A stretch of DNA of 64,000 nucleotides from Escherichia coli (GCF_002854065.1 NZ_CP024147.1), one strand, 5' to 3'. Shown: positions 10,669-52,335, numbered from the stretch's first letter. Program-made: numbers and translations. Notes: generated from the letters alone by a model not told the origin.

Positions 10669-11013
10669 GTTTCATCTCCTTATTCCATATTCTCATTCTC
10701 CATAAACTTGCTATAAAAACATGATTAAAAAGTGATGATTACTATTTATAAAATAATGATTTTGTTATGAGCGAATAGCTATCAGCCACTTACACTAGTA
10801 CGTCATCTTGTCTATATACAGATTTGTAACTGTTGATATGTTTTACTTAAACACACCTCGTATTTCTTATAACACTTGTTTGGTAACTATTTTCAATACA
10901 AATCATATTTGTTAGTTCTTCATTAACACACTGCGAGTGTTTTGTTACTCCCCGCATATATTTTATTCTCTTGTTCGATTCTATTTTTCTTAATCGATCA
11001 TATAATTTTCTTG

Positions 11014-11193
11014 TTAGTCGGATTTACGAATCATGAGACTTATAATGGAAGGAATGAGACTAAGCGGCCAGGTTAAACCTGTAATTATTGCAGCAAACAA
11101 CCGATATGTTACTTTTTCTTCCGAGAAGATAAATATTAAAGTCGATGTCACAACCAGACCTATCAGGTAAGCTAACAGTAATTTATTGATCAC
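11014..11193 (-). CDS. Hypothetical small membrane protein (59 aa, two predicted helices)
   Basis: GTG start 5 nt after GGGAGG; translation MINKLLLAYLIGLVVTSTLIFIFSEEKVTYRLFAAIITGLTWPLSLIPSIISLMIRKSD; absent from the ORF track (below 60 aa). Confidence 0.45.
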   Translation of the reverse strand: MINKLLLAYLIGLVVTSTLIFIFSEEKVTYRLFAAIITGLTWPLSLIPSIISLMIRKSD

Positions 11194-11259
11194 TTTTACC
11201 TCCCCTTTCGATTTCTCTTTGAGCGGTCCTTTTAATCCAGGACCGCCTCATTATGAAAA

Positions 11260-12870
11260 CTATTTAATTCCCTCATCATTGATAAGGTTGGACATCTCTT
11301 TCAACATGAGAGTCATTGAAGCTTTCGACCAATTTAGCGGAATGATAGGGCTTGGCGCTTCATGCAAAGTTCCCGACTTGTGGATATAGTTATAGCTTTC
11401 GGGAAGTGCCATTTCTGGTACGCTCCTGCCATTTGCACCAATCATATTCTCGCCTGTTATTTGGGCCAATGATCTATTCATAAATTGTACTGAGTCATTC
11501 AAATACTCTTCTTTTCTTGATTCTTTATAAACAATTGCTGCTGATTTTGCATACCATGAGTCAAAAAACCATTCTGCTTCTGTTGATGGAATGAAGCTCT
11601 TTTCTCTTTTTGCATGCGAATTTTGATCGGTATCGGTTTTAATATCATTGAACCAAAAATTTGCCGACTGATAATTATCCTTCTCGTATCTTTTTATACC
11701 ATACGGACCTGCTAGTTTTTTAACTATTTTTAGAACTTGCTCTTTTCTTCTGGTGTTTATCTTTGAAAGATTTGCAGGATAAATAACATTAAGTAAAGCC
11801 GCATCGGCTTCTCTGTAATGTTTATCTTTTTCCAGATAACCTGGGGATTCTCCCCCTAAATCAAGCTGTAACGTTATTCTTTCATAACCTTTATCTATGA
11901 GGTGGTTCAACCTCGTTGTTGAAAGAGGTTCATCCAGTTCATTGGCTTTAGCTTCGCGTAGTAAATCAGAGACAAAAACAGATTCTTTCTTCGAGAGTAA
12001 GTTCGACAAACGTTCCAGTCCAGAGGTCACCAGTGCAACGGAAGATGTGTTTAATCGGGCATCTTCCTCCCACGCTCCGGAATCTTCCATAACATAGAAA
12101 TTGGCTTTATCCAGATAAGCAATCAGCAACGCAACCGATTTTAATCGGTCACCTTTTTGCCAATCTTCAGCGTTAATAGTACCAGTATTGATTGCTTGTA
12201 TAAGGAGATCAAGATAAAGACCTAACGCATCATTTTGTTTATGGTTCCACAGCTGCGGCTTGCCTTCTTCCTGCACATCTGCCATCACGGGGGAGTTGCT
12301 GTCAAATCGGATATGCACAGCATTCATTTGCCCGGGAATACCATCCAGTCGTTTTGGGTTGCTAATGATGTCCTGCATCCGCTTAATCTGGTCGGGCGTA
12401 GACATATAATCCCACAGGGTGAGCAGAACCTTTTTTGCGGCTACACTATTTCCCTGGTCTGATACTAATGCCATATAGCCCCATAAACTATCCCTCAGCC
12501 AGACAGCATCATAGTGGGTTTCTGCCGCTGTTTTGTCATCTTCGAAAGTAGAAGCAAGAATAAACGTTACCCAGGGTTTCTCCGTCAACGTTAACTTTCG
12601 TGTGTTTTCTGTTAATGTTAGCAATCCTTGAATTTCGTCTTTGGTATAGTGGCTCTTTATTTCATTTTGTAATTTGGCTGAGTGAATCAGAAGACGATAA
12701 TTAGGATACTTATCTGGATTTAACGATAAATAACTTTTATCTGTTGCTGCCCCCGTGGAATTAAGAATGTTAAATACAGATTCACTCGTCACTTCTGCCC
12801 CTGTCGCCTGGCATGTGCCGCACGAAAATATACCAGCGAGCAGAAGAGTTAATGCAGATTTCCCTTTCAT
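11260..12870 (-). CDS. Secreted or lipoprotein glycoside hydrolase family 15-like protein
   Basis: 536-aa ORF from MKGKSALTLLLAGIFSCGTCQA (signal peptide with Cys); GH15-type motifs (AVWLRDS; GAWEEDARLNTSSVALV). The track's N-terminal extension to 12939 reads into IS2 and is rejected. Confidence 0.6.
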   Translation of the reverse strand: MKGKSALTLLLAGIFSCGTCQATGAEVTSESVFNILNSTGAATDKSYLSLNPDKYPNYRLLIHSAKLQNEIKSHYTKDEIQGLLTLTENTRKLTLTEKPWVTFILASTFEDDKTAAETHYDAVWLRDSLWGYMALVSDQGNSVAAKKVLLTLWDYMSTPDQIKRMQDIISNPKRLDGIPGQMNAVHIRFDSNSPVMADVQEEGKPQLWNHKQNDALGLYLDLLIQAINTGTINAEDWQKGDRLKSVALLIAYLDKANFYVMEDSGAWEEDARLNTSSVALVTSGLERLSNLLSKKESVFVSDLLREAKANELDEPLSTTRLNHLIDKGYERITLQLDLGGESPGYLEKDKHYREADAALLNVIYPANLSKINTRRKEQVLKIVKKLAGPYGIKRYEKDNYQSANFWFNDIKTDTDQNSHAKREKSFIPSTEAEWFFDSWYAKSAAIVYKESRKEEYLNDSVQFMNRSLAQITGENMIGANGRSVPEMALPESYNYIHKSGTLHEAPSPIIPLNWSKASMTLMLKEMSNLINDEGIK

Positions 12871-13002
12871 AAAATATTCCATCAATCGTTTGTTAAAAGC
12901 GTAGATAACCATAGACTGGCCCCCTGAATCTCCAGACAACCAATATCACTTAAATAAGTGATAGTCTTAATACTAGTTTTTAGACTAGTCATTGGAGAAC
13001 AG

Positions 13003-13368
13003 ATGATTGATGTCTTAGGGCCGGAGAAACGCAGACGGCGTACCACACAGGAAAAGATCGCAATTGTTCAGCAGAGCTTTGAACCGGGGATGACGGTCTC
13101 CCTCGTTGCCCGGCAACATGGTGTAGCAGCCAGCCAGTTATTTCTCTGGCGTAAGCAATACCAGGAAGGAAGTCTTACTGCTGTCGCCGCCGGAGAACAG
13201 GTTGTTCCTGCCTCTGAACTTGCTGCCGCCATGAAGCAGATTAAAGAACTCCAGCGCCTGCTCGGCAAGAAAACGATGGAAAATGAACTCCTCAAAGAAG
13301 CCGTTGAATATGGACGGGCAAAAAAGTGGATAGCGCACGCGCCCTTATTGCCCGGGGATGGGGAGTAA
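13003..13368 (+). CDS. insC: IS2 protein InsC (OrfA)
   Basis: 121-aa [21 protein letters not shown]..., RBS GGAG upstream; the track ORF starts 15 codons earlier inside the terminal repeat. Confidence 0.95.
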
Positions 13369-14231
13369 GCTTAGTCAGCCGTTGTCTCCGGGTGTCGCGT
13401 GCGCAGTTGCACGTCATTCTCAGACGAACCGATGACTGGATGGATGGCCGCCGCAGTCGTCACACTGATGATACGGATGTGCTTCTCCGTATACACCATG
13501 TTATCGGAGAGCTGCCCACGTATGGTTATCGTCGGGTATGGGCGCTGCTTCGCAGACAGGCAGAACTTGATGGTATGCCTGCGATCAATGCCAAACGTGT
13601 TTACCGGATCATGCGCCAGAATGCGCTGTTGCTTGAGCGAAAACCTGCTGTACCGCCATCGAAACGGGCACATACAGGCAGAGTGGCCGTGAAAGAAAGC
13701 AATCAGCGATGGTGCTCTGACGGGTTCGAGTTCTGCTGTGATAACGGAGAGAGACTGCGTGTCACGTTCGCGCTGGACTGCTGTGATCGTGAGGCACTGC
13801 ACTGGGCGGTCACTACCGGCGGCTTCAACAGTGAAACAGTACAGGACGTCATGCTGGGAGCGGTGGAACGCCGCTTCGGCAACGATCTTCCGTCGTCTCC
13901 AGTGGAGTGGCTGACGGATAATGGTTCATGCTACCGGGCTAATGAAACACGCCAGTTCGCCCGGATGTTGGGACTTGAACCGAAGAACACGGCGGTGCGG
14001 AGTCCGGAGAGTAACGGAATAGCAGAGAGCTTCGTGAAAACGATAAAGCGTGACTACATCAGTATCATGCCCAAACCAGACGGGTTAACGGCAGCAAAGA
14101 ACCTTGCAGAGGCGTTCGAGCATTATAACGAATGGCATCCGCATAGTGCGCTGGGTTATCGCTCGCCACGGGAATATCTGCGGCAGCGGGCTTGTAATGG
14201 GTTAAGTGATAACAGATGTCTGGAAATATAG
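13326..14231 (+). CDS. insD: IS2 transposase InsD (OrfB), IS3 family
   Basis: 301-aa ORF overlapping insC in the -1 frame; DDE-type integrase core. Confidence 0.95.
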
Positions 14232-14439
14232 GGGCAAATCCAAACCACTTATTTAACAACTTGAAAATAAGGTATTTTACCTGGGTTGTTATAAAAGGAT
14301 TGCATTGCGTAAACGCTTTTTATTTACAAAATAATGGGGAAGTGTTACTGCGATTGCGAAAAGTCTGAACCGATTGAATTAAGATAATATAGAAAATCAG
14401 ATACAACAAAAATGGCAGGTTGATGAGGTGAAGATAAAT

Positions 14440-14513
14440 TGGAGCGGGCGAAGGGAATCGAACCCTCGTATAGAGCTTGGGAAGCTCTCGTTCTACCATT
14501 GAACTACGCCCGC
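14440..14513 (-). tRNA. glyU: tRNA-Gly (anticodon CCC)
   Basis: Minus-strand 74-nt sequence GCGGGCGTAGTTCAATGGTAGAACGAGAGCTTCCCAAGCTCTATACGAGGGTTCGATTCCCTTCGCCCGCTCCA; cloverleaf with CCC anticodon and encoded CCA. Confidence 0.97.
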
Positions 14514-14591
14514 TTCGAGATGCGTAAGGCATTATAAACCTTACGCTCTCCTTAGCAAGTGCCGCGCTGCTGACTGCTGATTAATTCGCCA

Positions 14592-15347
14592 TCAGCATTT
14601 TGGCTTGCTGCCCTGCGGCGGCAAGTAACGTAGCGGATCAATTGCCGTTGCACGGTAACGAATCTGGAAATGCAGGCGAACAGATGCCGCATCCGTGCTC
14701 CCCATGGTGGCGATTTTTTGCCCAGCCTTCACGCTTTGCCCATTATTTACCAGCATCGTGTCATTATGGGCGTAAGCCGTAATGTAATCTTCACTGTGTT
14801 TAATCATGATGAGATTACCGTAGCCACGCAGCTGGTTGCCCACATACACCACCTTTCCTGCACCCGCGGCGTAAATAGGTGTACCCCGTGGAGCAGAGAT
14901 ATCAATCCCTTTATTGCCGCCATCTGCTGTCGAATACGGCATGATAACTTTCCCTGTCGTTGGCCATAACCAACAACGTTGCCCTACTGGCGGCCAGGAA
15001 GATTTCGGTACCGCTGATGACGGTGTAACCGATGCGGTTTTGGTCGTTGATTTGGCGGTTGATTTACGTGTACTACTGCTACTTTTCGCCCCACCCAGTT
15101 TTAGTTTCTGACCAACTTCAATGGTGTAAGGGGGGGAAATGCCGTTCAGTCGCGCCAGCTCTTTTACGCTGGTTCCCGTGGTGCGCGAAATACGATATAG
15201 CGTATCCCCCCGTTTCACGGTGTAAACGGAGCCGGAATACGTTCCTGTATCGGATGATTTGCTACCCGAACAGCCCGCCAAAAGCAGTCCAACCGATAAC
15301 AACATCACGATACCCAGAGATTTTTTATTCAGGCGTCCCGCACTCAA
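14592..15347 (-). CDS. ygeR: LysM/M23-peptidase-family lipoprotein
   Basis: Lipoprotein signal (LLLAGCSG), LysM region, C-terminal M23 fold; TTG start at 15347 preceded by GAGGAAAG (the track extends to another TTG at 15371). Confidence 0.85.
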   Translation of the reverse strand: MSAGRLNKKSLGIVMLLSVGLLLAGCSGSKSSDTGTYSGSVYTVKRGDTLYRISRTTGTSVKELARLNGISPPYTIEVGQKLKLGGAKSSSSTRKSTAKSTTKTASVTPSSAVPKSSWPPVGQRCWLWPTTGKVIMPYSTADGGNKGIDISAPRGTPIYAAGAGKVVYVGNQLRGYGNLIMIKHSEDYITAYAHNDTMLVNNGQSVKAGQKIATMGSTDAASVRLHFQIRYRATAIDPLRYLPPQGSKPKC

Positions 15348-15489
15348 AATCTTTCCTCGCTTAAAAAACAAGACGCCATATCATAGCAGCCAGCCTCTTG
15401 ATACCCAATCTCTTGCTTCTGGAAAAACGCGGTAGGTGATGCTGCCAACTTACTGATTTAGTGTATGATGGTGTTTTTGAGGTGCTCCA

Positions 15490-15765
15490 GTGGCTTCTGT
15501 TTCTATCAGCTGTCCCTCCTGTTCAGCTACTGACGGGGTGGTGCGTAACGGCAAAAGCACTGCCGGACATCAGCGCTATCTCTGCTCTCACTGCCGTAAA
15601 ACATGGCAACTGCAGTTCACTTACACCGCTTCTCAACCCGGTACGCACCAGAAAATCATTGATATGGCCATGAATGGCGTTGGATGCCGGGCAACCGCCC
15701 GCATTATGGGCGTTGGCCTCAACACGATTTTCCGCCATTTAAAAAACTCAGGCCGCAGTCGGTAA
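15490..15765 (+). CDS. insA: IS1 protein InsA
   Basis: Protein identical to the other two InsA copies; GTG start. Confidence 0.95.
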
Positions 15766-16187
15766 CCTCGCGCATACAGCCGGGCAGTGACGTCATCGTC
15801 TGCGCGGAAATGGACGAACAGTGGGGATACGTCGGGGCTAAATCGCGCCAGCGCTGGCTGTTTTACGCGTATGACAGGCTCCGGAAGACGGTTGTTGCGC
15901 ACGTATTCGGTGAACGCACTATGGCGACGCTGGGGCGTCTTATGAGCCTGCTGTCACCCTTTGACGTGGTGATATGGATGACGGATGGCTGGCCGCTGTA
16001 TGAATCCCGCCTGAAGGGAAAGCTGCACGTAATCAGCAAGCGATATACGCAGCGAATTGAGCGGCATAACCTGAATCTGAGGCAGCACCTGGCACGGCTG
16101 GGACGGAAGTCGCTGTCGTTCTCAAAATCGGTGGAGCTGCATGACAAAGTCATCGGGCATTATCTGAACATAAAACACTATCAATAA
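15684..16187 (+). CDS. insB: IS1 transposase InsB
   Basis: Protein identical to the other two InsB copies. Confidence 0.95.
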
Positions 16188-16468
16188 GTTGGAGTCATTA
16201 CCAACGCGGTAATAGAGAAAGAGGTTAATTTCATTTGGCAAAGGGAAGTATCATCAGCAAAATTTTCGCTGTAGAGGTATCGAATTTCCTGACTTTTTTA
16301 CCCTATTTCCCATCCTGATGCGTAATAATCCCAATTTATCACATTGATTTTATCGCCACTCATATTGATACGTATCACTGTCCCTATTCAGAGTCCTGTT
16401 TCGTATCATATCTGTGTTTTTTTAACGTCATCACACTTCCTTCCTCCCCTAACGCTTATCGTCGTTTC

Positions 16469-16484
16469 TGGCGTAAATCTTGCC
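16469..16484 (+). promoter_or_regulatory. Candidate sigma-54 (-24/-12) promoter upstream of xdhA
   Basis: TGGCGTAAATCTTGCC: GG at 16470-16471 and GC at 16482-16483 with canonical spacing and TTGC at -12; about 55 bp upstream of the xdhA start. Confidence 0.5.
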
Positions 16485-22020: not shown

Positions 22021-22389
22021 AGCTTTACCTTCCAGACTTACTTAAAAGTCGATCATTGAAGACGTTGATGGTTCACAGATCATGATGATATTAACTCAGG
22101 CGAAATTGGCTTTGATAAAAACATAAGATTTTTATCACTTTCTAATGAAATTATGGAAGAGATATCACATTTCTATATCAATATGAGAATTACGGCGGTG
22201 AGTTTATCAAACTGACGAGGGATAGCCTGCCCCTTTATCTTATTTCTGATACTTAGCAGCAAATAAATAACGCAATAAAAAAAGCCAAACGTTTTCGTAT
22301 TTTACAAACAACCGGAAGCTAGCATCAATTTGTGATCAACCCCACACATTATCCGTCAAATTAGTCTTTTGCAGCCCCGTGGATAATTC

Positions 22390-41819: not shown

Positions 41820-43139
41820 ATGATGTCAGGAGAACACACGTTAAAAGCGGTACGAGGCAGTTTTATTGATGTCACCCGTACGGTCGATAACCCGGAAGAG
41901 ATTGCCTCTGCGCTGCGGTTTATTGAGGATGGTTTATTACTCATTAAACAGGGAAAAGTGGAATGGTTTGGCGAATGGGAAAACGGAAAGCATCAAATTC
42001 CTGACACCATTCGCGTGCGCGACTATCGCGGCAAACTGATAGTACCGGGCTTTGTCGATACACATATCCATTATCCGCAAAGTGAAATGGTGGGGGCCTA
42101 TGGTGAGCAATTGCTGGAGTGGTTGAATAAACACACCTTCCCTACTGAACGTCGTTATGAGGATTTAGAGTACGCCCGCGAAATGTCGGCGTTCTTCATC
42201 AAGCAGCTTTTACGTAACGGAACCACCACGGCGCTGGTGTTTGGCACTGTTCATCCGCAATCCGTTGATGCGCTGTTTGAAGCCGCCAGTCATATCAATA
42301 TGCGTATGATTGCCGGTAAGGTGATGATGGACCGTAACGCACCGGATTATCTGCTCGACACTGCCGAAAGCAGCTATCACCAAAGCAAAGAACTGATTGA
42401 ACGCTGGCACAAAAATGGTCGTCTGCTATATGCGATTACACCACGCTTCGCCCCTACTTCTTCTCCTGAACAGATGGCGATGGCGCAACGCCTGAAAGAG
42501 GAATATCCGGATACGTGGGTACATACCCATCTCTGTGAAAACAAAGATGAAATTGCCTGGGTGAAATCGCTTTATCCTGACCATGATGGTTATCTGGATG
42601 TTTACCATCAGTACGGCCTGACCGGTAAAAACTGTGTCTTTGCTCACTGCGTCCATCTCGAAGAAAAAGAGTGGGATCGTCTCAGCGAAACCAAATCCAG
42701 CATTGCTTTCTGTCCGACCTCCAACCTTTACCTCGGCAGCGGCTTATTCAACTTGAAAAAAGCATGGCAGAAGAAAGTCAAAGTGGGCATGGGAACGGAT
42801 ATCGGTGCCGGAACCACTTTCAACATGCTGCAAACGCTGAACGAAGCCTACAAAGTGTTGCAATTACAAGGCTATCGCCTCTCGGCATATGAAGCGTTTT
42901 ACCTGGCCACGCTCGGCGGAGCGAAATCTCTGGGCCTTGACGATTTGATTGGCAACTTTTTACCTGGCAAAGAGGCTGATTTCGTGGTGATGGAACCCAC
43001 CGCCACTCCGCTACAGCAGCTGCGCTATGACAACTCTGTTTCTTTAGTCGACAAATTGTTCGTGATGATGACGTTGGGCGATGACCGTTCGATCTACCGC
43101 ACCTACGTTGATGGTCGTCTGGTGTACGAACGCAACTAA
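41820..43139 (+). CDS. guaD: Guanine deaminase
   Basis: 439-aa ORF from MMSGEHTLKAVRGSF with the metal-binding HxH motif (GFVDTHIHYPQ); the track extension overlaps the xanQ 3' end. Confidence 0.92.
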   Translation: MMSGEHTLKAVRGSFIDVTRTVDNPEEIASALRFIEDGLLLIKQGKVEWFGEWENGKHQIPDTIRVRDYRGKLIVPGFVDTHIHYPQSEMVGAYGEQLLEWLNKHTFPTERRYEDLEYAREMSAFFIKQLLRNGTTTALVFGTVHPQSVDALFEAASHINMRMIAGKVMMDRNAPDYLLDTAESSYHQSKELIERWHKNGRLLYAITPRFAPTSSPEQMAMAQRLKEEYPDTWVHTHLCENKDEIAWVKSLYPDHDGYLDVYHQYGLTGKNCVFAHCVHLEEKEWDRLSETKSSIAFCPTSNLYLGSGLFNLKKAWQKKVKVGMGTDIGAGTTFNMLQTLNEAYKVLQLQGYRLSAYEAFYLATLGGAKSLGLDDLIGNFLPGKEADFVVMEPTATPLQQLRYDNSVSLVDKLFVMMTLGDDRSIYRTYVDGRLVYERN

Positions 43140-43174
43140 TAATAAAACTTTAACATCCTCGTGAGGACATCATT

Positions 43175-44542
43175 ATGTCTGGAGACATCCTACAAACACC
43201 GGACGCACCAAAGCCACAGGGCGCGCTGGATAATTATTTTAAAATTACCGCTCGTGGCAGTACCGTTCGTCAGGAAGTACTGGCTGGCTTAACGACCTTT
43301 CTGGCTATGGTTTATTCCGTTATCGTCGTTCCGGGAATGCTGGGCAAAGCAGGTTTTCCTCCCGCAGCTGTGTTTGTTGCCACCTGTCTGGTCGCGGGCT
43401 TCGGCTCGTTGCTGATGGGATTATGGGCCAATTTGCCAATGGCGATTGGTTGCGCGATTTCCTTGACGGCGTTTACCGCATTCAGTCTGGTACTCGGGCA
43501 ACAAATTAGCGTTCCTGTCGCACTGGGCGCGGTATTTCTGATGGGCGTCATCTTCACCGCCATTTCCGTAACCGGTGTGCGTACCTGGATCTTACGTAAT
43601 TTGCCGATGGGTATCGCTCACGGTACAGGTATCGGTATCGGGCTGTTTCTGCTGCTGATTGCTGCTAACGGTGTGGGTATGGTTATCAAAAACCCGATTG
43701 AAGGCTTGCCAGTGGCGCTCGGTGCGTTTACCTCCTTCCCGGTGATGATGAGCTTGCTGGGGCTGGCGGTCATCTTCGGTCTGGAGAAGTGTCGCGTACC
43801 CGGCGGGATCTTGTTGGTGATTATTGCAATTTCGATCATCGGCTTAATCTTTGACCCAGCGGTGAAATACCACGGTCTGGTGGCGATGCCAAGCCTGACT
43901 GGCGAAGATGGTAAGTCTCTGATTTTCAGCCTCGATATTATGGGCGCACTCCAGCCAACTGTACTTCCGAGTGTACTGGCATTGGTGATGACCGCAGTGT
44001 TCGACGCTACTGGCACCATCCGTGCCGTCGCCGGTCAGGCGAATTTGTTGGATAAAGACAACCAGATCATCAACGGCGGCAAAGCCCTGACCAGTGACTC
44101 TGTAAGTTCAATATTCTCCGGCCTGGTGGGCGCAGCGCCCGCAGCGGTTTATATCGAATCAGCGGCAGGAACCGCCGCCGGGGGTAAAACAGGGTTAACC
44201 GCAACCGTAGTGGGGGCGTTATTCCTGCTGATTCTGTTCTTATCACCGCTGTCATTTTTGATCCCTGGTTACGCCACTGCACCCGCTCTGATGTACGTAG
44301 GTTTGCTGATGTTAAGTAACGTCTCGAAGCTGGATTTCAATGATTTTATTGACGCTATGGCTGGCCTGGTGTGTGCCGTGTTCATCGTTCTGACTTGTAA
44401 TATCGTTACCGGTATCATGCTGGGCTTTGTGACACTGGTCGTAGGCCGCGTCTTTGCACGCGAATGGCAAAAGCTGAATATTGGTACGGTGATCATTACT
44501 GCCGCACTGGTCGCATTTTACGCGGGTGGTTGGGCAATCTAA
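43175..44542 (+). CDS. ghxQ: Guanine/hypoxanthine permease (NCS2 family)
   Basis: 455-aa polytopic membrane ORF; K-12 synonym ygfQ. Confidence 0.9.
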
Positions 44543-44547
44543 TAGAT

Positions 44548-44577
44548 TCTCCGCGCCTTTCAGCGCGGAGATTTCTT
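44548..44577 (+). terminator. Intrinsic terminator downstream of ghxQ
   Basis: 9-bp stem TCTCCGCGC/GCGCGGAGA, then TTTCTTT; abuts the convergent ygfS stop. Confidence 0.65.
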
Positions 44578-45069
44578 TCACAGAGGATTCTCACCGCTGG
44601 CAACAATACGCTGCTGGCGGACTCGCCTGAGTTCTCTTTCAGTAAGCAACTGCAGCGCCTGTGTTGGGCAAGATTCAACGCAGGCTGGCCCCTCTTCCCG
44701 CTGTTCACAGAGATCGCATTTCACGATTTGTTGCCGGGTATCCCCCGGCAGCGACTGAATGGTGATCATTCCAAACGGGCACGCACTGACGCAACTCTGA
44801 CAGCCAATACAACGGGCAGAATTGGTCTGCACCACCTGCTCGCCCATCGTCAGCGCCCCCACGGGGCAAGCGCCAACACAAGGGGCGTTTTCACATTGGT
44901 GGCACATCACCGGCGCACTGATGCAGTCCAGTCGCTGTACCTTCAGCCGGGGTAAAAAGATATCGGCATTCAACTCCTGTTCTGAAGGGTGAGCGACCAC
45001 ACAGGCCACTTCACAAGTACGGCAGCCAATACAGTCAGCCGGATTAACGATAATTAACGATTTCATCAC
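44578..45069 (-). CDS. ygfS: 4Fe-4S ferredoxin-type protein
   Basis: 163-aa ORF with four CxxCxxCxxxCP-type clusters. Confidence 0.9.
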
Positions 45070-46985
45070 GATGCCTTCGTATCAAACAGAGTTAACATAT
45101 CGCGCGCCGCCTGCCTTCCTGCGGCCATGGCAGTGACAACCAGATCCGCGCCATGAACTGCATCCCCACCAGCAAAGACTTTTTTCAGATGCGTCTGGGT
45201 AGGTAAATACCCAACGTCGCCGGTTTGAATCAGGCCCCATTTATCGAGTTTAATTCCGCTGCCCTGCAACCACGGCATGGCATGCGCCTGGAAACCAAAG
45301 GCCATAATGAGAACATCGGCGGGCAATTCAAACTCTGAACCCGCAACCGGACGAGGACGACGGCGACCATCCGGCCCCGGCTCACCCATGGCGGTACGAA
45401 TCAGGCCCACCGCAGTTAAACGCCCATCTTCGTCACAAGCGATATATTGCGGCTGAACATTGAATTGAAACTCGACACCTTCCTCGCGCGCATTGACCAC
45501 CTCTTTGCGCGAGCCCGGCATACTGACTTCATCACGACGATACGCGCAGGTCACGCTGGCGGCATTGAGGCGGATGGAAGTCCGCAAACAATCCATTGTC
45601 GTATCGCCACCGCCCAATACCACGACTCGCTTACCTTCCACGTCCGTCAGCGGATACTCTTCAGACTCCGGCAATCCCATGAGCTGGCGGGTATGGGCAG
45701 TCAGGAACGGTAGAGCCTGAATGACACCGGGCGCATCTTCATGCGGCAGATCTGCTCGCATCATCCCGTAAGTCCCCACGCCGATGAAAACTGCATCATA
45801 TTCAGAAGTTAAATCGCTAAAGGTAATATCGCGGCCAATTTCACAGTTAAGATGAAAGTCGATTCCCATTGCGGTGAATATCTCTCGCCGCTGGCTTAAT
45901 ACCGTTTTATCGAGTTTGAAAGGAGGTATGCCAAAAGTCAGCATACCGCCAATTTCTGGATGGCGATCAAAGACATCAACCTGAACTCCTGCGCGCGCCA
46001 GAATATCAGCACACCCTAACCCTGCTGGTCCAGCGCCAATCACCGCCACTTTTTCGCTACGGGGAACAACTTTGCTGACATCGGGACGCCAGCCCATCGC
46101 CAGCGCGGTATCGGTGATGTAGCGTTCCAGATTACCGATAGAGACTGCGCCAGAGTGATCTTTCAAAGTACATGCGCCTTCACAAAGACGGTCCTGTGGA
46201 CATACCCTGCCGCAGATTTCTGGTAAGGAACTGGTCTGGTGGCAAAGTTCTGCCGCTTCAATAATCTTTCCTTCCTGTACCAGACGGATGTAATCCGGAA
46301 TAGCGTTATGCAGCGGGCAATGCCAGTTGCAGTTAGCTTTTTCGGCACAATAAACACAGCGGTCACTCTCATAAGTCGCTTGTTGTGGATCCAGCCCGCA
46401 ATAGATTTCGCCAAAGTGGTTTTTCCGTTCACTTGCTGAAATTTTATCTGCGCCTTTACGCGAGTTAACGGGGAGCAACGCTGCACTGCGAGATGGCTGA
46501 GCGTCTGATGACGCTTTTCCTGCTGCCGTTTTGCGCTGGCGGGCCACCTTTATCTGCTGTAACCCTTTATCGTCCATCAGTCGTAACGCCTGTGTTGGGC
46601 AAACTTCAATACAGGCTTGCGTGCCGGAACTGCGCTGTTTACAAAGGTCGCATTTCTGCGCAATCGTATCGACCATCTCAACGACGCCAAAGGGGCAAGC
46701 GATTGCGCATCTTTTACAACCAATACATTTTTGCTCGTCCAGTTGTACGCTATCGGACTGGAAAGTCAGAGCATTAACCGGACAAGCCGTAACGCAAGGG
46801 GCATTGTTGCAGTGATGGCAGGCCACCGGATTCGCAGCCAGGCCTTTCCCTACAACGTGGATACGTGGTCGAAAGTCACTGTGACTCAGCGGCCAGTTTT
46901 CTTGATTGTGTGCCACCGCACAGGCAATTTCACAAGCATGACAGCCTATACATTCCGCAGCTTCAGCAGCGATAAACTTATTCAT
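45066..46985 (-). CDS. ygfT: Fused Fe-S / FAD-NAD(P) pyridine nucleotide-disulfide oxidoreductase (GltD-like)
   Basis: 639-aa product from [15 protein letters not shown]; N-terminal ferredoxin Cys clusters and dinucleotide-binding motif ([12 protein letters not shown]); the track ORF has 5 extra N-terminal codons. Confidence 0.9.
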
Positions 46986-47336
46986 TTGCATCCCTTTCAT
47001 TTAATGAGTTATGTCTTCTCAAATTTCGCGATGCAATAAACGGGCATATATTAGGTAGCATGACCGTTTTAATTATAATTTTGCGACTGAGTTCAAATTA
47101 TTGCCCCTCAATCTATGCCGCTTTCATTATTTCAACATTGCCGATCAAAAGAGCGCTATCCAGATAAAAACGATTAAATGCGAGAGTGCGACATGCCAGA
47201 ATGATTAATGAAATATCAATATGAGAAAATTACAGATAATTCCATTGTCAGGTTCTCTTGTCATTTTCGTGGTTTAAGCACGATTATGTGATTGCCTCCG
47301 CAATTCCTGTCTCTAACTCCCCTTCCTCGCAAAAAC

Positions 47337-47352
47337 TGGCACTCCACGAGCA
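47337..47352 (+). promoter_or_regulatory. Candidate sigma-54 promoter upstream of uacT
   Basis: TGGCACTCCACGAGCA: perfect -24 TGGCAC, GC at canonical -12 spacing; about 70 bp upstream of the uacT start. Confidence 0.45.
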
Positions 47353-47420
47353 TGTGTTTAGACAGTTTCATTAACGTAAACGGTTGCTTTTTACTCTGGC
47401 GGGCGAAAGGAGAAACACTG

Positions 47421-48869
47421 ATGAGCGCCATAGATTCCCAACTTCCCTCATCTTCTGGGCAAGACCGCCCAACTGATGAGGTTGACCGCATATTATCACC
47501 AGGAAAGCTGATCATACTCGGTCTGCAACACGTCCTTGTCATGTACGCAGGTGCAGTCGCTGTTCCTCTTATGATTGGTGACCGACTGGGCCTCTCAAAA
47601 GAAGCTATTGCGATGCTCATTAGCTCGGATCTCTTTTGCTGCGGGATCGTCACATTATTGCAATGTATCGGTATCGGCCGCTTTATGGGGATCCGCCTGC
47701 CGGTGATTATGTCGGTGACCTTTGCTGCTGTAACACCAATGATAGCCATTGGGATGAACCCGGATATCGGCCTGCTGGGGATATTTGGTGCCACTATCGC
47801 CGCGGGTTTTATCACCACATTATTAGCGCCACTTATCGGTCGCTTGATGCCTTTATTCCCGCCACTGGTTACCGGTGTGGTTATTACTTCTATCGGACTT
47901 AGCATCATTCAGGTGGGTATTGACTGGGCCGCCGGAGGTAAAGGGAATCCGCAATATGGTAATCCCGTTTATTTAGGTATCTCCTTTGCCGTCTTAATTT
48001 TTATCTTGCTCATTACTCGCTATGCGAAAGGATTTATGTCCAACGTCGCCGTATTACTGGGGATTGTATTTGGCTTTTTACTTTCGTGGATGATGAATGA
48101 AGTCAATTTATCCGGGCTACATGATGCCTCGTGGTTTGCGATTGTTACGCCGATGTCGTTTGGTATGCCGATTTTCGATCCCGTTTCCATTCTGACCATG
48201 ACTGCCGTGTTAATCATCGTGTTTATCGAGTCGATGGGGATGTTCCTGGCACTGGGTGAAATAGTCGGTCGTAAACTCTCTTCGCACGATATTATTCGCG
48301 GGCTGCGTGTCGATGGCGTAGGGACAATGATAGGCGGAACGTTTAACAGCTTCCCCCATACGTCATTTTCTCAAAACGTTGGCCTGGTTAGCGTGACGCG
48401 CGTTCATAGCCGCTGGGTGTGTATTTCTTCGGGAATTATATTAATCCTGTTTGGCATGGTGCCAAAAATGGCGGTGCTGGTAGCCTCCATTCCGCAATTT
48501 GTGCTGGGCGGCGCTGGTCTGGTGATGTTCGGCATGGTACTGGCGACAGGGATTCGAATTCTGTCGAGCTGTAACTACACCACCAACCGTTACAACCTCT
48601 ATATTGTGGCGATCAGTCTCGGCGTTGGCATGACTCCGACGCTCTCTCACGATTTCTTTTCTAAGTTACCGGCCGTACTGCAACCGCTGCTACATAGCGG
48701 CATTATGCTCGCAACCCTTAGCGCCGTTGTGCTGAATGTCTTCTTTAATGGCTATCAGCATCATGCTGACCTGGTGAAGGAATCCGTCTCTGATAAAGAT
48801 TTAAAAGTCAGGACAGTACGTATGTGGCTTCTGATGCGCAAGCTGAAGAAAAATGAGCATGGAGAATAA
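47421..48869 (+). CDS. uacT: Uric acid:H+ symporter (NCS2/NAT family)
   Basis: 482-aa ORF from MSAIDSQLPSSSGQDRPTDE with AAAGGAG Shine-Dalgarno; the track ORF starts 43 codons upstream at a TTG. Confidence 0.92.
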   Translation: MSAIDSQLPSSSGQDRPTDEVDRILSPGKLIILGLQHVLVMYAGAVAVPLMIGDRLGLSKEAIAMLISSDLFCCGIVTLLQCIGIGRFMGIRLPVIMSVTFAAVTPMIAIGMNPDIGLLGIFGATIAAGFITTLLAPLIGRLMPLFPPLVTGVVITSIGLSIIQVGIDWAAGGKGNPQYGNPVYLGISFAVLIFILLITRYAKGFMSNVAVLLGIVFGFLLSWMMNEVNLSGLHDASWFAIVTPMSFGMPIFDPVSILTMTAVLIIVFIESMGMFLALGEIVGRKLSSHDIIRGLRVDGVGTMIGGTFNSFPHTSFSQNVGLVSVTRVHSRWVCISSGIILILFGMVPKMAVLVASIPQFVLGGAGLVMFGMVLATGIRILSSCNYTTNRYNLYIVAISLGVGMTPTLSHDFFSKLPAVLQPLLHSGIMLATLSAVVLNVFFNGYQHHADLVKESVSDKDLKVRTVRMWLLMRKLKKNEHGE

Positions 48870-48870
48870 T

Positions 48871-48996
48871 ATGAGTTTTTTAATGCGCGCTATATTCAGT
48901 CTGCTGTTGCTTTTTACTCTCTCTATTCCTGTCATTTCTGACTGTGTTGCAATGGCCATTGAAAGTCGCTTCAAATATATGATGCTACTTTTTTAA
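48871..48996 (+). CDS. yqfG: Small hydrophobic protein (41 aa), translationally coupled to uacT
   Basis: ATG 1 nt after the uacT stop, with GGAG 7 nt upstream; MSFLMRAIFSLLLLFTLSIPVISDCVAMAIESRFKYMMLLF; assignment to yqfG is tentative, from memory of a 41-aa K-12 small protein. Confidence 0.45.
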   Translation: MSFLMRAIFSLLLLFTLSIPVISDCVAMAIESRFKYMMLLF

Positions 48997-49118
48997 ATGG
49001 TTTTTACCTGTCGACATCCGCTCAAAACGGGCGGTTGTCGATAAACGCTCACTTGGTTAATCATTTCACTCTTCAATTATCTATAATGATGAGTGATCAG
49101 AATTACATGTGAGAAATT

Positions 49119-49667
49119 ATGCAAACGGAACACGTCATTTTATTGAATGCACAGGGAGTTCCCACGGGTACGCTGGAAAAGTATGCCGCACACACGGCAG
49201 ACACCCGCTTACATCTCGCGTTCTCCAGTTGGCTGTTTAATGCCAAAGGACAATTATTAGTTACCCGTCGCGCTCTGAGCAAAAAAGCATGGCCTGGCGT
49301 GTGGACTAACTCGGTTTGTGGGCACCCACAACTGGGAGAAAGCAACGAAGACGCGGTGATCCGCCGTTGCCGTTATGAGCTTGGCGTGGAAATTACGCCT
49401 CCTGAATCTATCTATCCTGACTTTCGCTATCGCGCCACCGATCCGAATGGCATTGTGGAAAATGAAGTGTGTCCGGTATTTGCCGCACGCACCACCAGTG
49501 CGTTACAGATCAACGATGATGAAGTGATGGATTATCAATGGTGTGATTTAGCTGATGTATTACGCGGTATTGATGCCACGCCATGGGCGTTCAGTCCGTG
49601 GATGGTGATGCAGGCGACAAATCGCGAAGCCAGAATACGATTATCTGCATTTACCCAGCTTAAATAA
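49119..49667 (+). CDS. idi: Isopentenyl-diphosphate delta-isomerase (Nudix fold)
   Basis: 182-aa ORF starting [25 protein letters not shown]. Confidence 0.95.
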
Positions 49668-49691
49668 AAAACCCCGACATTTGCCGGGGTT
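49662..49691 (-). terminator. Intrinsic terminator downstream of lysS
   Basis: Stem AACCCCG/CGGGGTT with 8-nt loop; on the minus strand followed by UUUUUAUUU; overlaps the idi stop. Confidence 0.65.
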
Positions 49692-49709
49692 GTGAGCATA
49701 ACGTAATGC

Positions 49710-51227
49710 TTATTTCACCGGACGCATCGCCGGGAACAGAATAACGTCGCGGATGGTATGGCTGTTGGTGAACAGCATTACCATACGGTCGATGCCAATC
49801 CCCAGACCTGCTGTCGGCGGTAAGCCATGTTCCAGTGCGGTAACGTAATCTTCATCGTAGAACATCGCTTCGTCGTCACCTGCGTCTTTCGCGGCAACCT
49901 GATCCAGGAAGCGTTGCGCCTGATCTTCCGCGTCATTCAGCTCGCTAAAGCCGTTACCGATTTCACGACCACCAATGAAGAACTCAAAGCGGTCTGTGAT
50001 TTCCGGGTTAACGTCGTTACGACGCGCCAGCGGAGAAACTTCTGCCGGATATTCAGTAATGAAGGTCGGCTGAATCAGATGTGCTTCTGCCACTTCTTCG
50101 AAGATCTCGGTAACGATACGGCCCAGACCCCAGCTCTTCTCAACGTGGATACCGATAGATTCAGCAATCGCTTTTGCAGAGTCGAAGTTGTCCAGATCCG
50201 CCATGTCGGTTTCCGGGCGATATTTCTTGATCGCTTCACGCATGGTCAGTTTTTCGAACGGTTTACCGAAGTCCAGCGTCACGTCGCCGTAGGTCACTTC
50301 CGTCTTACCGAGAATATCCTGTGCCAGAGTACGGAACAGCGATTCGGTCAGCTCAATCAGATCTTTGTAATCTGCGTAAGCCATATAGAGTTCCATCATG
50401 GTGAACTCTGGGTTATGACGTACGGAAATACCTTCGTTACGGAAGTTACGGTTGATTTCGAATACACGCTCGAATCCACCAACCACCAGACGCTTGAGGT
50501 ACAGTTCCGGCGCGATACGCAGGTACATGTCGAGATCCAGCGCGTTATGGTGGGTGATAAACGGACGCGCAGCGGCACCGCCTGGGATCACCTGCATCAT
50601 CGGCGTTTCAACTTCCATAAAGCCGCGGTTCACCATGAACTGGCGAATACCAGAGAGGATCTGCGAGCGCACTTTAAAGGTGTTACGGGATTCATCGTTA
50701 GAGATGAGATCCAGATAACGCTGACGATAGCGCGCTTCCTGATCCTGCAAGCCGTGGAATTTATCCGGCAGCGGACGCAGTGCTTTGGTCAGTAGACGCA
50801 GCTCGGTACAGTGGATAGACAGTTCGCCGGTTTTGGTTTTGAACAGTTTACCTTTCGCGCCGAGGATGTCGCCGAGGTCCCATTTTTTGAACTGCTCGTT
50901 GTAAACGCCTTCCGGCAGATCGTCACGGGCAACGTACAGCTGAATGCGACCGCCAACGTCCTGCAGGGTAACGAAAGACGCTTTACCCATAATACGACGG
51001 GTCATCATGCGGCCAGCAACGGCGACTTCGATGTTCAGCGCTTCCAGTTCTTCGTTCTCTTTGCCGTCGAATTCTGCGTGCAATTGGTCAGAGGTATGAT
51101 CGCGACGGAAATCGTTCGGGAAGGCAATCCCCTGCTCGCGCAGGTTCGCCAGCTTCTCACGACGCGTTTTCAGTTCATTGTTAAGATCGACTACCGCGTC
51201 AGCGCCCTGTGCGTGTTGTTCAGACAT
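49710..51227 (-). CDS. lysS: Lysyl-tRNA synthetase (class II)
   Basis: 505-aa ORF with class II aaRS motifs. Confidence 0.97.
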
Positions 51228-51236
51228 GTTGGTTCC

Positions 51237-52335
51237 TCATAACCCTGCTTTCAAACTTGCTTCGATAAATTGATCCAGGCTGCCGTCCAGCACGGCCTGC
51301 GTGTTGCGGGTTTCTACCCCGGTGCGCAGATCTTTAATGCGGGAGTCATCAAGGACATAAGAACGAATCTGGCTGCCCCAGCCGATGTCGGATTTGTTAT
51401 CTTCCATCGCCTGTTTCTCGGCATTTTTCTTCTGCATCTCCAGTTCATAAAGCTTCGCTTTCATCTGCTTCATGGCCTGGTCTTTGTTCTTGTGCTGGGA
51501 ACGGTCGTTCTGGCACTGGGTCACGATCCCGGTTGGGATGTGAGTAATACGCACCGCAGATTCGGTACGGTTAACGTGCTGACCGCCCGCGCCGGACGCG
51601 CGATAAACGTCAATGCGCAGATCCGCCGGGTTGATTTCGATATCAATATCGTCATCGACTTCCGGGTAAACAAACGCGGAGCTGAACGACGTATGGCGAC
51701 GACCGCCGGAGTCAAACGGGCTTTTACGCACCAGGCGGTGAACGCCGGTTTCTGTACGCAGCCAGCCGTAAGCGTAATCGCCGGAGATTTTGATAGTCAC
51801 GGATTTAATACCCGCCACTTCACCTTCCGACTCTTCGATGATTTCAGTTTTGAAACCACGCGATTCTGCCCAGCGCAGATACATACGCTCAAGCATGCTC
51901 GCCCAGTCCTGTGCTTCCGTACCGCCAGACCCCGCCTGAATATCGAGGTAGCAGTCGGCGCTGTCATATTCGCCAGAGAACATACGGCGGAACTCAAGCT
52001 GCGCTAGTTTTTCTTCCAGGGCGTCGAGTTCAGCAACGGCTTCGTTAAAGGTTTCTTCGTCGTTAGCTTCTACAGCCAGTTCCAGCAGACCAGAAACATC
52101 TTCCAGTCCCTGTTTCATTTGGTCGAGGGTGTCGACAACGGCTTCGAGGGAGGAACGCTCTTTACCCAGCGCCTGTGCGCGTTCGGGTTCGTTCCAGACA
52201 TCCGGCTGTTCCAGCTCGGCGTTTACTTCTTCCAGACGCTCTTTCTTGGCGTCGTAGTCAAAGATACCCCCTAAGAACGTCGGAGCGTTCCGTGAGGTCC
52301 TGAATGCGATTATTTACCGGATTAATTTCAAACAT
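51237..52335 (-). CDS. prfB: Peptide chain release factor 2, with programmed +1 frameshift
   Basis: Codons 1-25 at 52335-52261 (ATG ... AGG GGG TAT CTT) then in-frame TGA; a +1 shift at CTT-T (skipping 52260) joins the 1023-nt frame 52259-51237; GGQ motif in the product ([11 protein letters not shown]). Confidence 0.95.

Follow-up and report, generated by a model that had tools for sequence, protein, structure and literature searches.

The ygfT-ygfS locus of Escherichia coli, a probable electron-transfer module linking formate oxidation to anaerobic uric acid degradation

Genes and gene products of the locus

The window, a stretch of Escherichia coli DNA of 64,000 nucleotides (GCF_002854065.1, NZ_CP024147.1), contains two overlapping open reading frames on its minus strand, 44578..45069 and 45066..47000. 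In the RefSeq annotation of an identical strain these correspond to ygfS (44578-45066, minus strand) and ygfT (45066-46985, minus strand), and the span 44578-46985 given for the pair in the initial annotation is exact. An upstream ATG for ygfT, at 47000, is not kept outside Escherichia. The pair is flanked by ghxQ (plus strand, ending at 44542) and uacT (plus strand, starting at 47421). The coding sequences are as follows:

44578..45066, minus strand: ygfS, 162 amino acids, ATG at 45066, HydN/HycB-type free ferredoxin
45066..46985, minus strand: ygfT (= uacF), 639 amino acids, NF009451 equivalog

The region 44400-47300 has 100 % identity with two complete genomes, those of strains 100416 and CUWW06, and collinearity of the window with strain CUWW06 starts at position 16203. 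Of 5,426 complete E. coli genomes, 5,323 contain the ygfS-ygfT locus, nearly always as a single copy. Further ORFs, antisense to the two genes or overlapping them, lie on the plus strand at 44464-44955, 45447-45713, 46493-46777 and 46617-47039 and on the minus strand at 46163-46486. Pfam gave no match for any of them and they were treated as shadow ORFs, and an Rfam search of 43000-50000 gave zero family matches.

The pair had initially been described as convergent with the purine permease genes. This applies to ghxQ, from which it is separated by a gap of 35 bp, but not to uacT, from which ygfS-ygfT diverges. The convergent gap contains one structural feature:

44548..44571, no strand assigned: GC-rich hairpin in the 35-bp ghxQ/ygfS gap, with a stem of approximately 9-10 bp

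The terminator scan gave nine pairs followed by TTTCTTTC on the plus strand, and on the minus strand the hairpin folds with -21.8 kcal/mol (z = -4.67), suggesting that it is probably a bidirectional terminator. Promoter-like matches in the sigma-70/terminator consensus scan were no commoner than in shuffled sequence, so that these were left unused and the hairpin alone was kept.

The reading frames of ygfT and ygfS meet, on the coding strand, in GCATCGTGATGAAATCG:

45064..45068, minus strand: TGATG stop/start overlap of ygfT and ygfS, the TGA stop and the ATG start having one base in common

The initial annotation described the genes as translationally coupled by an ATGA overlap. An overlap is indeed present, although its sequence here is TGATG, and a 4-nt overlap, GTGA, is obtained only with an alternative GTG start. 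The literal ATGA is found at the junction in several other genera, and in all eight loci of other genera in which both genes have been called the overlap is 1 or 4 nt. The TGATG overlap is a candidate for translational coupling of ygfT and ygfS.

The predicted YgfT protein aligned over residues 1-639 of 639 with NF009451, "formate-dependent uric acid utilization protein YgfT", with 1500.6 bits (E = 0), the equivalog cut-off being 1154 bits. Pfam matches were obtained for Fer4_11/Fer4_7 (aa 9-137), Fer4_20 (aa 188-298) and Pyr_redox_2 (aa 312-623), giving the architecture of YgfT/UacF, in which a four-cluster ferredoxin domain is followed by Fer4_20 and then by an FAD/NAD(P)H domain of the Pyr_redox_2 type. 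The position of the gene is also that of ygfT/uacF, adjoining the urate permease gene uacT and the urate-degradation cluster. The parts of the protein map to the window as follows:

46566..46985, minus strand: N-terminal four-cluster ferredoxin domain (aa 1 to approximately 140), from Pfam and Cys motifs
46425..46565, minus strand: linker of approximately 47 amino acids, rich in Ala, Ser, Lys and Arg (aa 141-187, without domain match)
46092..46424, minus strand: Fer4_20 (aa 188-298), predicted to hold two GltD/DPD-type [4Fe-4S] clusters (PF14691, 126 bits)
45117..46052, minus strand: Pyr_redox_2 (aa 312-623), with FAD and NAD(P)H sites, from Pfam and structure-sequence alignment

The N-terminal domain has 16 cysteines in four motifs (aa 12-22, 56-68, 87-97 and 112-129). 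Its top match among solved structures was HycB of formate hydrogenlyase (7z0s_B, 108 bits), and it also matches the HDCR subunits HycB3/4 in 7qv7. The linker may be flexible, and the alignment with GltD starts at approximately aa 176. YgfT scored 850 bits with TIGR01318, gltD_gamma_fam (cut-off 483), and 368 bits with the solved GltD 6s6s_G, with approximately 50 % identity over aa 176-631. Residue-level comparison with GltD (6s6s_G) and NfnB (4ylf_B, 5jca_L) shows that YgfT keeps the Cys ligands of the two GltD-type clusters, GAGPAG for FAD, GGGDTTMDC for NADPH, and YRRD. The initial description of YgfT as ferredoxin-type Cys clusters fused to a GltD-like dinucleotide-binding domain is borne out by the Pfam, TIGR01318 and motif-alignment results. 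YgfT is labelled "glutamate synthase small subunit" in some databases; there is no gltB-like gene from dpaL to ubiI, and without a GltB partner this label was rejected.

YgfT also matches the NfnB-type proteins 4ylf_B and 5jca_L (approximately 293 bits) and StnC (8oh5_C), a strong similarity which could be taken to mean that the FAD of YgfT acts like that of NfnB or StnC, bifurcating or confurcating electrons and coupling formate or ferredoxin with NAD(P)H so as to power an otherwise difficult reduction; bifurcation has been raised for AegA in a review. YgfT is, however, closer to the non-bifurcating GltD than to NfnB, an NfnA-like or NuoEF-like partner is absent beside ygfT in all loci examined, so that the arrangement is not of the NfnAB type, and there is no experimental indication of such coupling. 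We consider this explanation very improbable.

YgfS contains four [4Fe-4S] Cys motifs (16 Cys; aa 12-22, 55-67, 86-96 and 117-133), passes the Fer4_11 threshold of 26.2 bits and has a HycB/HydN-type ferredoxin fold, its cluster content being predicted. Its best solved relative is HycB (7z0s_B, 112 bits), and the description as a four-cluster ferredoxin in the initial annotation agrees with the Cys motifs, Fer4_11 and this match. HycB, subunit 2 of formate hydrogenlyase, is the one that docks FdhF. YgfS scored 134.6 bits on the HydN model NF007658, for which the equivalog cut-off is 260, and is a paralogue rather than HydN. Over its full length it has 46 % identity with aa 1-157 of YgfT, so that the operon encodes the same module twice, once free and once fused. 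Together, YgfT and YgfS are predicted to carry ten [4Fe-4S] clusters and one FAD. In the literature YgfS, YgfT, HydN, YsaA, HycB, HyfA and AegA have been placed in one paralogous group (Pinske 2018), and we found no published study on ygfS itself.

Regulation of ygfT-ygfS

Two regulatory elements were assigned upstream of and within ygfT:

47032..47048, minus strand: non-canonical sigma-54 element TATGCCCGTTTATTGCA, upstream of ygfT, from a ChIP-seq site and conservation
46693..46708, plus strand: PurR box GGGCAAGCGATTGCGC inside the ygfT coding sequence, an exact match to the published motif

No sigma-54 motif had been noticed for the pair initially. This is correct for the canonical form, as TGGCAC-N5-TTGC is lacking and the scan of the ygfT-facing strand of the intergenic region gave a single GG-N10-GC with a poor match (6/12), but it overlooks a published site. 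The sigma-54 ChIP-seq data (Bonocora et al. 2015) list sites for xdhA, ygeW and ygfK, which our scan located at window positions 16469, 22390 and 32026, and, for ygfT, a weak site, OS32, with the sequence TATGCCCGTTTATTGCA, 36 bp from the gene and with a motif score of 4.5. The -12 part of this element is a perfect TTGCA, whereas the -24 part lacks the GG, ATGCCC replacing TGGCAC. The 17-mer TATGCCCGTTTATTGCA does not vary among Escherichia and Citrobacter, including cases in which the remaining intergenic region has diverged. In Klebsiella, Arsenophonus, Erwinia, Buttiauxella, Salmonella diarizonae, Pantoea and Cedecea the ygfT start is preceded, at a distance of 50-62 nt, by nGCCy-N5-TTGCAT.

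Expression data also connect ygfT with the urate genes. It belongs to the YgeV iModulon together with xdhD, ygfM, ygfK, ssnA and uacT, its expression is lowered in a ygeV mutant according to papers citing the original work, and ygfT and ygfK are strongly induced by urate, aegA being induced modestly (Liu et al.). Because of the ChIP site, the conservation of the element, the YgeV iModulon and the decrease in the ygeV mutant, the preferred reading of ygfT-ygfS is that it belongs to the sigma-54/YgeV urate regulon and that its -24 element is non-canonical. An FNR box (TTGAT-N4-ATCAA) was sought by eye in the ygfT-uacT intergenic region and none was convincing. The PurR box coincides with the motif GGGCAAGCGATTGCGC carried by a PurR ChIP-chip peak named 'ygfT-ygfS'.

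Formate dehydrogenase genes and the route of electrons to urate

Anaerobic urate breakdown by gut bacteria affects host uric acid levels and is being engineered into probiotics. Both ygfT and ygfS already have names, annotations and a partial characterisation, and their role is known. According to papers which cite Iwadate and Kato (2019), E. coli depends on formate to consume urate anaerobically, with aegA, ygfT and ygeV taking part; for this degradation K-12 requires ygfT, redundantly with aegA. The deletion phenotype on urate which the initial annotation had suggested as a check is thus essentially published, at least as these papers report it. The same papers relate the proposal that AegA and YgfT receive electrons at formate dehydrogenase and deliver them to NADP+ or to urate, and a review describes anaerobic urate degradation as dependent on formate and FDH-H. 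The enzyme reactions from XdhD through to YgeX were reconstituted in a system which did not include YgfT or YgfS (Li et al. 2025): XdhD-YgfM reduces urate to 2,8-dioxopurine with NADH, YgfK dearomatises the product and hydrolytic steps follow. Genetics assigns the entry of reducing power into the pathway in vivo to YgfT/AegA and formate.

The synteny sample consisted of 15 loci outside E. coli with a full-length YgfT orthologue. A scan of genome contigs with the single YgfT protein gave 12 loci, mostly from Escherichia and Citrobacter, and four more matches (L012-L015) over the GltD-like part only, which are probably other GltD-like paralogues. In the sample, ygfT lies beside uacT/urate-degradation genes in 10 of the 15 loci, and ygfS directly follows ygfT in 12; Arsenophonus, Citrobacter R56 and Atlantibacter lack ygfS at this place, so that some lineages can do without it.

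Six of the 15 loci have an fdhF-type gene next to ygfT-ygfS. In Erwinia and Pantoea ygfT, ygfS and fdhF form, in this order, one operon of overlapping genes, and the FdhF-type protein there, with 893 bits on TIGR01591, carries Cys in place of Sec. In Klebsiella aerogenes, K. michiganensis and S. diarizonae an fdhF-type gene lies just past uacT. The K. aerogenes gene is 84 % identical to E. coli fdhF at the nucleotide level and keeps the in-frame TGA Sec codon (CARV*HGPS), which identifies it as an FDH-H orthologue. In Cedecea fdhF is divergent from ygfT, and the ygfT-ygfS-fdhF trio has no urate genes, including xdhD and ygfK, within 10 kb. In E. coli and in the other nine loci fdhF is not adjacent; it is absent from the annotated stretches of the window that were checked, so that the link with FDH-H is invisible from the E. 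coli window alone. The fdhF synteny at ygfT-ygfS is an addition of the present analysis, and it gives the genetic link of FDH-H with YgfT/YgfS a second, independent support.

The usual direction of electron flow in GltD/DPD proteins is from NAD(P)H toward the Fe-S clusters, and YgfT might accordingly be regarded as an NAD(P)H:ferredoxin (YgfS) oxidoreductase serving another enzyme, the need for formate then being indirect. That fdhF shares an operon with the pair in Erwinia and Pantoea and adjoins it in K. aerogenes, K. michiganensis, S. diarizonae and Cedecea, together with the published FDH-H dependence, makes such a reverse flow the least credible of the explanations considered, and we give it almost no weight.

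The best explanation, which we regard as probable, is that ygfT-ygfS encodes the UacF/YgfS module of the anaerobic reductive uric acid pathway and couples the oxidation of formate to the supply of reducing power for the pathway. Formate would be oxidised by formate dehydrogenase H (FdhF), whose electrons would pass to a HycB-like four-cluster ferredoxin, either the free YgfS or the N-terminal domain of YgfT or both, then to the two GltD-type [4Fe-4S] clusters of YgfT and its FAD, and from the FAD to NAD(P)+. The NAD(P)H formed could feed XdhD-YgfM, for the reduction of urate to 2,8-dioxopurine, and YgfK, for dearomatisation. The two genes would be transcribed from the weak non-canonical sigma-54 promoter, within the YgeV (UacR) urate regulon, and co-expressed by means of the conserved stop/start overlap. 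The identity of the genes, their domains and cofactor motifs, the co-regulation with the urate genes and the fdhF synteny are established, as is, from the literature, the genetic need for ygfT/aegA, formate and FDH-H. That FdhF touches YgfS/YgfT, which way the electrons flow, that NAD(P)+ accepts them and which cofactors are bound we infer. In a two-hybrid analysis AegA bound HycB, HydN and YsaA and did not bind FdhF (Pinske 2018), suggesting that an adaptor may sit between AegA and the dehydrogenase. We found no biochemical reconstitution of YgfT or YgfS in the literature, which counts against the path from FdhF through YgfS to YgfT, as do the three loci lacking ygfS beside ygfT and the distance of fdhF from the pair in E. 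coli and nine of the 15 loci.

The initial annotation regarded the pair as an electron-transfer module for a neighbouring hydroxylase. That it is an Fe-S/flavin electron-transfer module is supported by Pfam, the HMMs, the unambiguous sequence matches to solved GltD and HycB and the motif alignment, and the YgeV iModulon and the induction by urate tie it to the purine/urate genes. A direct feed to XdhD or XdhA is not supported, however, and the electron source, formate by way of FDH-H, to which the literature and the fdhF synteny point, was missed.

Direct transfer, in which YgfS/YgfT would hand low-potential electrons to XdhD and/or YgfK and bypass NAD(P)H, would fit the position of ygfT-ygfS next to xdhD-type genes in many genera and the regulation that they have in common. 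Formate (approximately -420 mV) is also a better reductant than NADH (-320 mV) for the reduction of urate (near -360 mV). Iwadate and Kato (2019), as cited by others, left open a transfer 'directly to uric acid', and the XdhD and UacX proteins of Clostridioides difficile, which lack FAD modules, are thought to use ferredoxin. E. coli XdhD, in contrast, co-purifies with its own FAD subunit, YgfM, and NADH alone suffices for urate reduction; YgfK, described as NADH-reliant, has its own modelled FAD site for electrons from NAD(P)H. Since XdhD-YgfM uses NADH and YgfK is described as doing so, a supply of NAD(P)H would suffice. YgfT itself keeps its NAD(P)H site intact, although pure Fe-S wiring would make it superfluous, and the trio in Cedecea occurs without the hydroxylase gene nearby. 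For these reasons direct transfer is less necessary, and we consider it unlikely.

A more specific form of the preferred reading, formate oxidation coupled to pathway reducing power, is that FdhF, YgfS and YgfT together form a dedicated soluble formate:NAD(P)+ or formate:urate-pathway oxidoreductase, a second home of FDH-H outside formate hydrogenlyase. We propose this tentatively, with slightly less than even confidence. By analogy YgfS would play the part of HycB in such an enzyme, the GltD-like FAD might bifurcate as in NfnB, and the ygfT-ygfS-fdhF operon of Erwinia and Pantoea would be its ancestral or explicit form. If FdhF, YgfS and YgfT do constitute a formate-driven supply of reductant, the formate requirement would be explained and the genes to be co-expressed would be indicated to those engineering the pathway. 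The fdhF synteny offers, at the level of gene order, a concrete model of what the biochemical partners of YgfT and YgfS may be.

Comparison with known systems

YgfT (UacF, b2887) and YgfS (b2886) of E. coli K-12 are the closest known counterparts: YgfT passes the equivalog cut-off, the genes have the same position between ghxQ and uacT, and nucleotide identity across E. coli is 95-100 %. There is no difference of substance, the window being from a non-K-12 strain.

AegA, the E. coli paralogue designated 'formate-dependent uric acid utilization protein AegA', shares the three-part architecture of YgfT and, according to papers citing Iwadate and Kato (2019), has a redundant role in urate degradation. 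YgfT scored 950 bits on the AegA model, below the cut-off of 1003, and is therefore not AegA, which also differs in being modestly induced by urate, whereas ygfT is strongly induced. In E. coli aegA is not known to have a ferredoxin gene beside it, and one aegA operon of Pectobacterium carries such a gene.

GltD (6s6s_G, 2vdc_G) has the two [4Fe-4S] clusters, the FAD and the NADPH motifs in common with YgfT, over the region of approximately 50 % identity (aa 176-631). YgfT differs from it in the additional N-terminal four-cluster domain and in lacking a neighbouring partner gene of the gltB type; it is therefore no subunit of a glutamate synthase. Similarly, NfnB, SudA and StnC contain a homologous module of FAD, NADPH site and two clusters, but YgfT has no partner gene of the NfnA or StnAB type. 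HycB, HydN and YsaA of the formate hydrogenlyase system have the same 16-Cys module as YgfS and the N-terminal domain of YgfT; the genomic partner of YgfS is, however, a flavoprotein and not a hydrogenase.

Putative promoter elements between ygfT and uacT

A near-canonical sigma-54 motif faces the urate permease gene uacT, and the PurR-box-like sequence and the conserved block found in the same intergenic region are listed with it, together with a second PurR-box-like sequence elsewhere in the window.

47337-47352, plus strand: sigma-54 motif TGGCACTCCACGAGCA, 69 bp upstream of the uacT ATG
47374-47389, plus strand: PurR-box-like sequence ACGTAAACGGTTGCTT, in the uacT leader
about 47085-47095, minus strand: TCGCAAAA(T) block, upstream of the ygfT sigma-54-like element
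22283-22298, plus strand: PurR-box-like sequence, in the ygeV/ygeW intergenic region

At eight other loci, from seven genera, the equivalent motif, TGGCAC-N5-nnGCA, is the best GG-N10-GC on the uacT-facing strand, and often the sole one. A look through the ChIP-seq study of sigma-54 did not find TGGCACTCCACGAGCA in its main text. Divergent sigma-54 promoters therefore seem to be present in the ygfT-uacT intergenic region.

Most genera keep the TCGCAAAA(T) block (L003, L005 and L009, among other ygfT loci), which lies upstream of the -24 element of ygfT at a distance of about 35-40 nt and is palindromic in its K. aerogenes form, GTTCGCAAAAACGAAC. The block is possibly a binding site for a regulator or for IHF. 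The PurR-box-like sequence of the uacT leader is kept in Escherichia and Citrobacter; it and the ygeV/ygeW sequence are the only PurR-box matches with three or fewer mismatches in the 64 kb searched, 0.46 per window being expected by chance.

Flanking regions of the window

Collinearity with E. coli strain CUWW06 is missing upstream of 16203, and 8981-10595 and 11191-12911 are without a match in that strain. Downstream of uacT, collinearity with an annotated strain places yqfG and yqfH, which are tiny overlapping genes, and also prfB, which has a programmed frameshift.

about 7430-16204: IS-rich patch, with three IS1 copies and IS2
about 7430-8188, 8212-8980 and 15435-16204 (the last inverted): IS1 copies
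51237-52335 (minus strand) and 48871-49064: prfB, yqfG, yqfH region

Molybdo-hydroxylase and FdhF homologues in other genera

L003 1881-5096, L005 6402-9632, L020 6437-9655, L024 1310-4522: fused molybdo-hydroxylase genes (Klebsiella, Erwinia, Pantoea)
L005 12440-14590, L020 12452-14602: Cys-type FdhF homologue genes (Erwinia, Pantoea)

In Erwinia and Pantoea, the FdhF homologues encoded in the operon carry Cys (CARVCHGPS) at the selenocysteine position of the E. coli and Klebsiella enzymes. The molybdo-hydroxylase near ygfT in Klebsiella, Erwinia and Pantoea scores under the cut-off of all XDH equivalogs; it unites Mo-binding and FAD-binding parts in one fused chain of about 1,070 amino acids and is accompanied by a separate [2Fe-2S] subunit of 152 amino acids, whereas E. 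coli has XdhD, which combines the Fe-S and Mo parts, plus YgfM.
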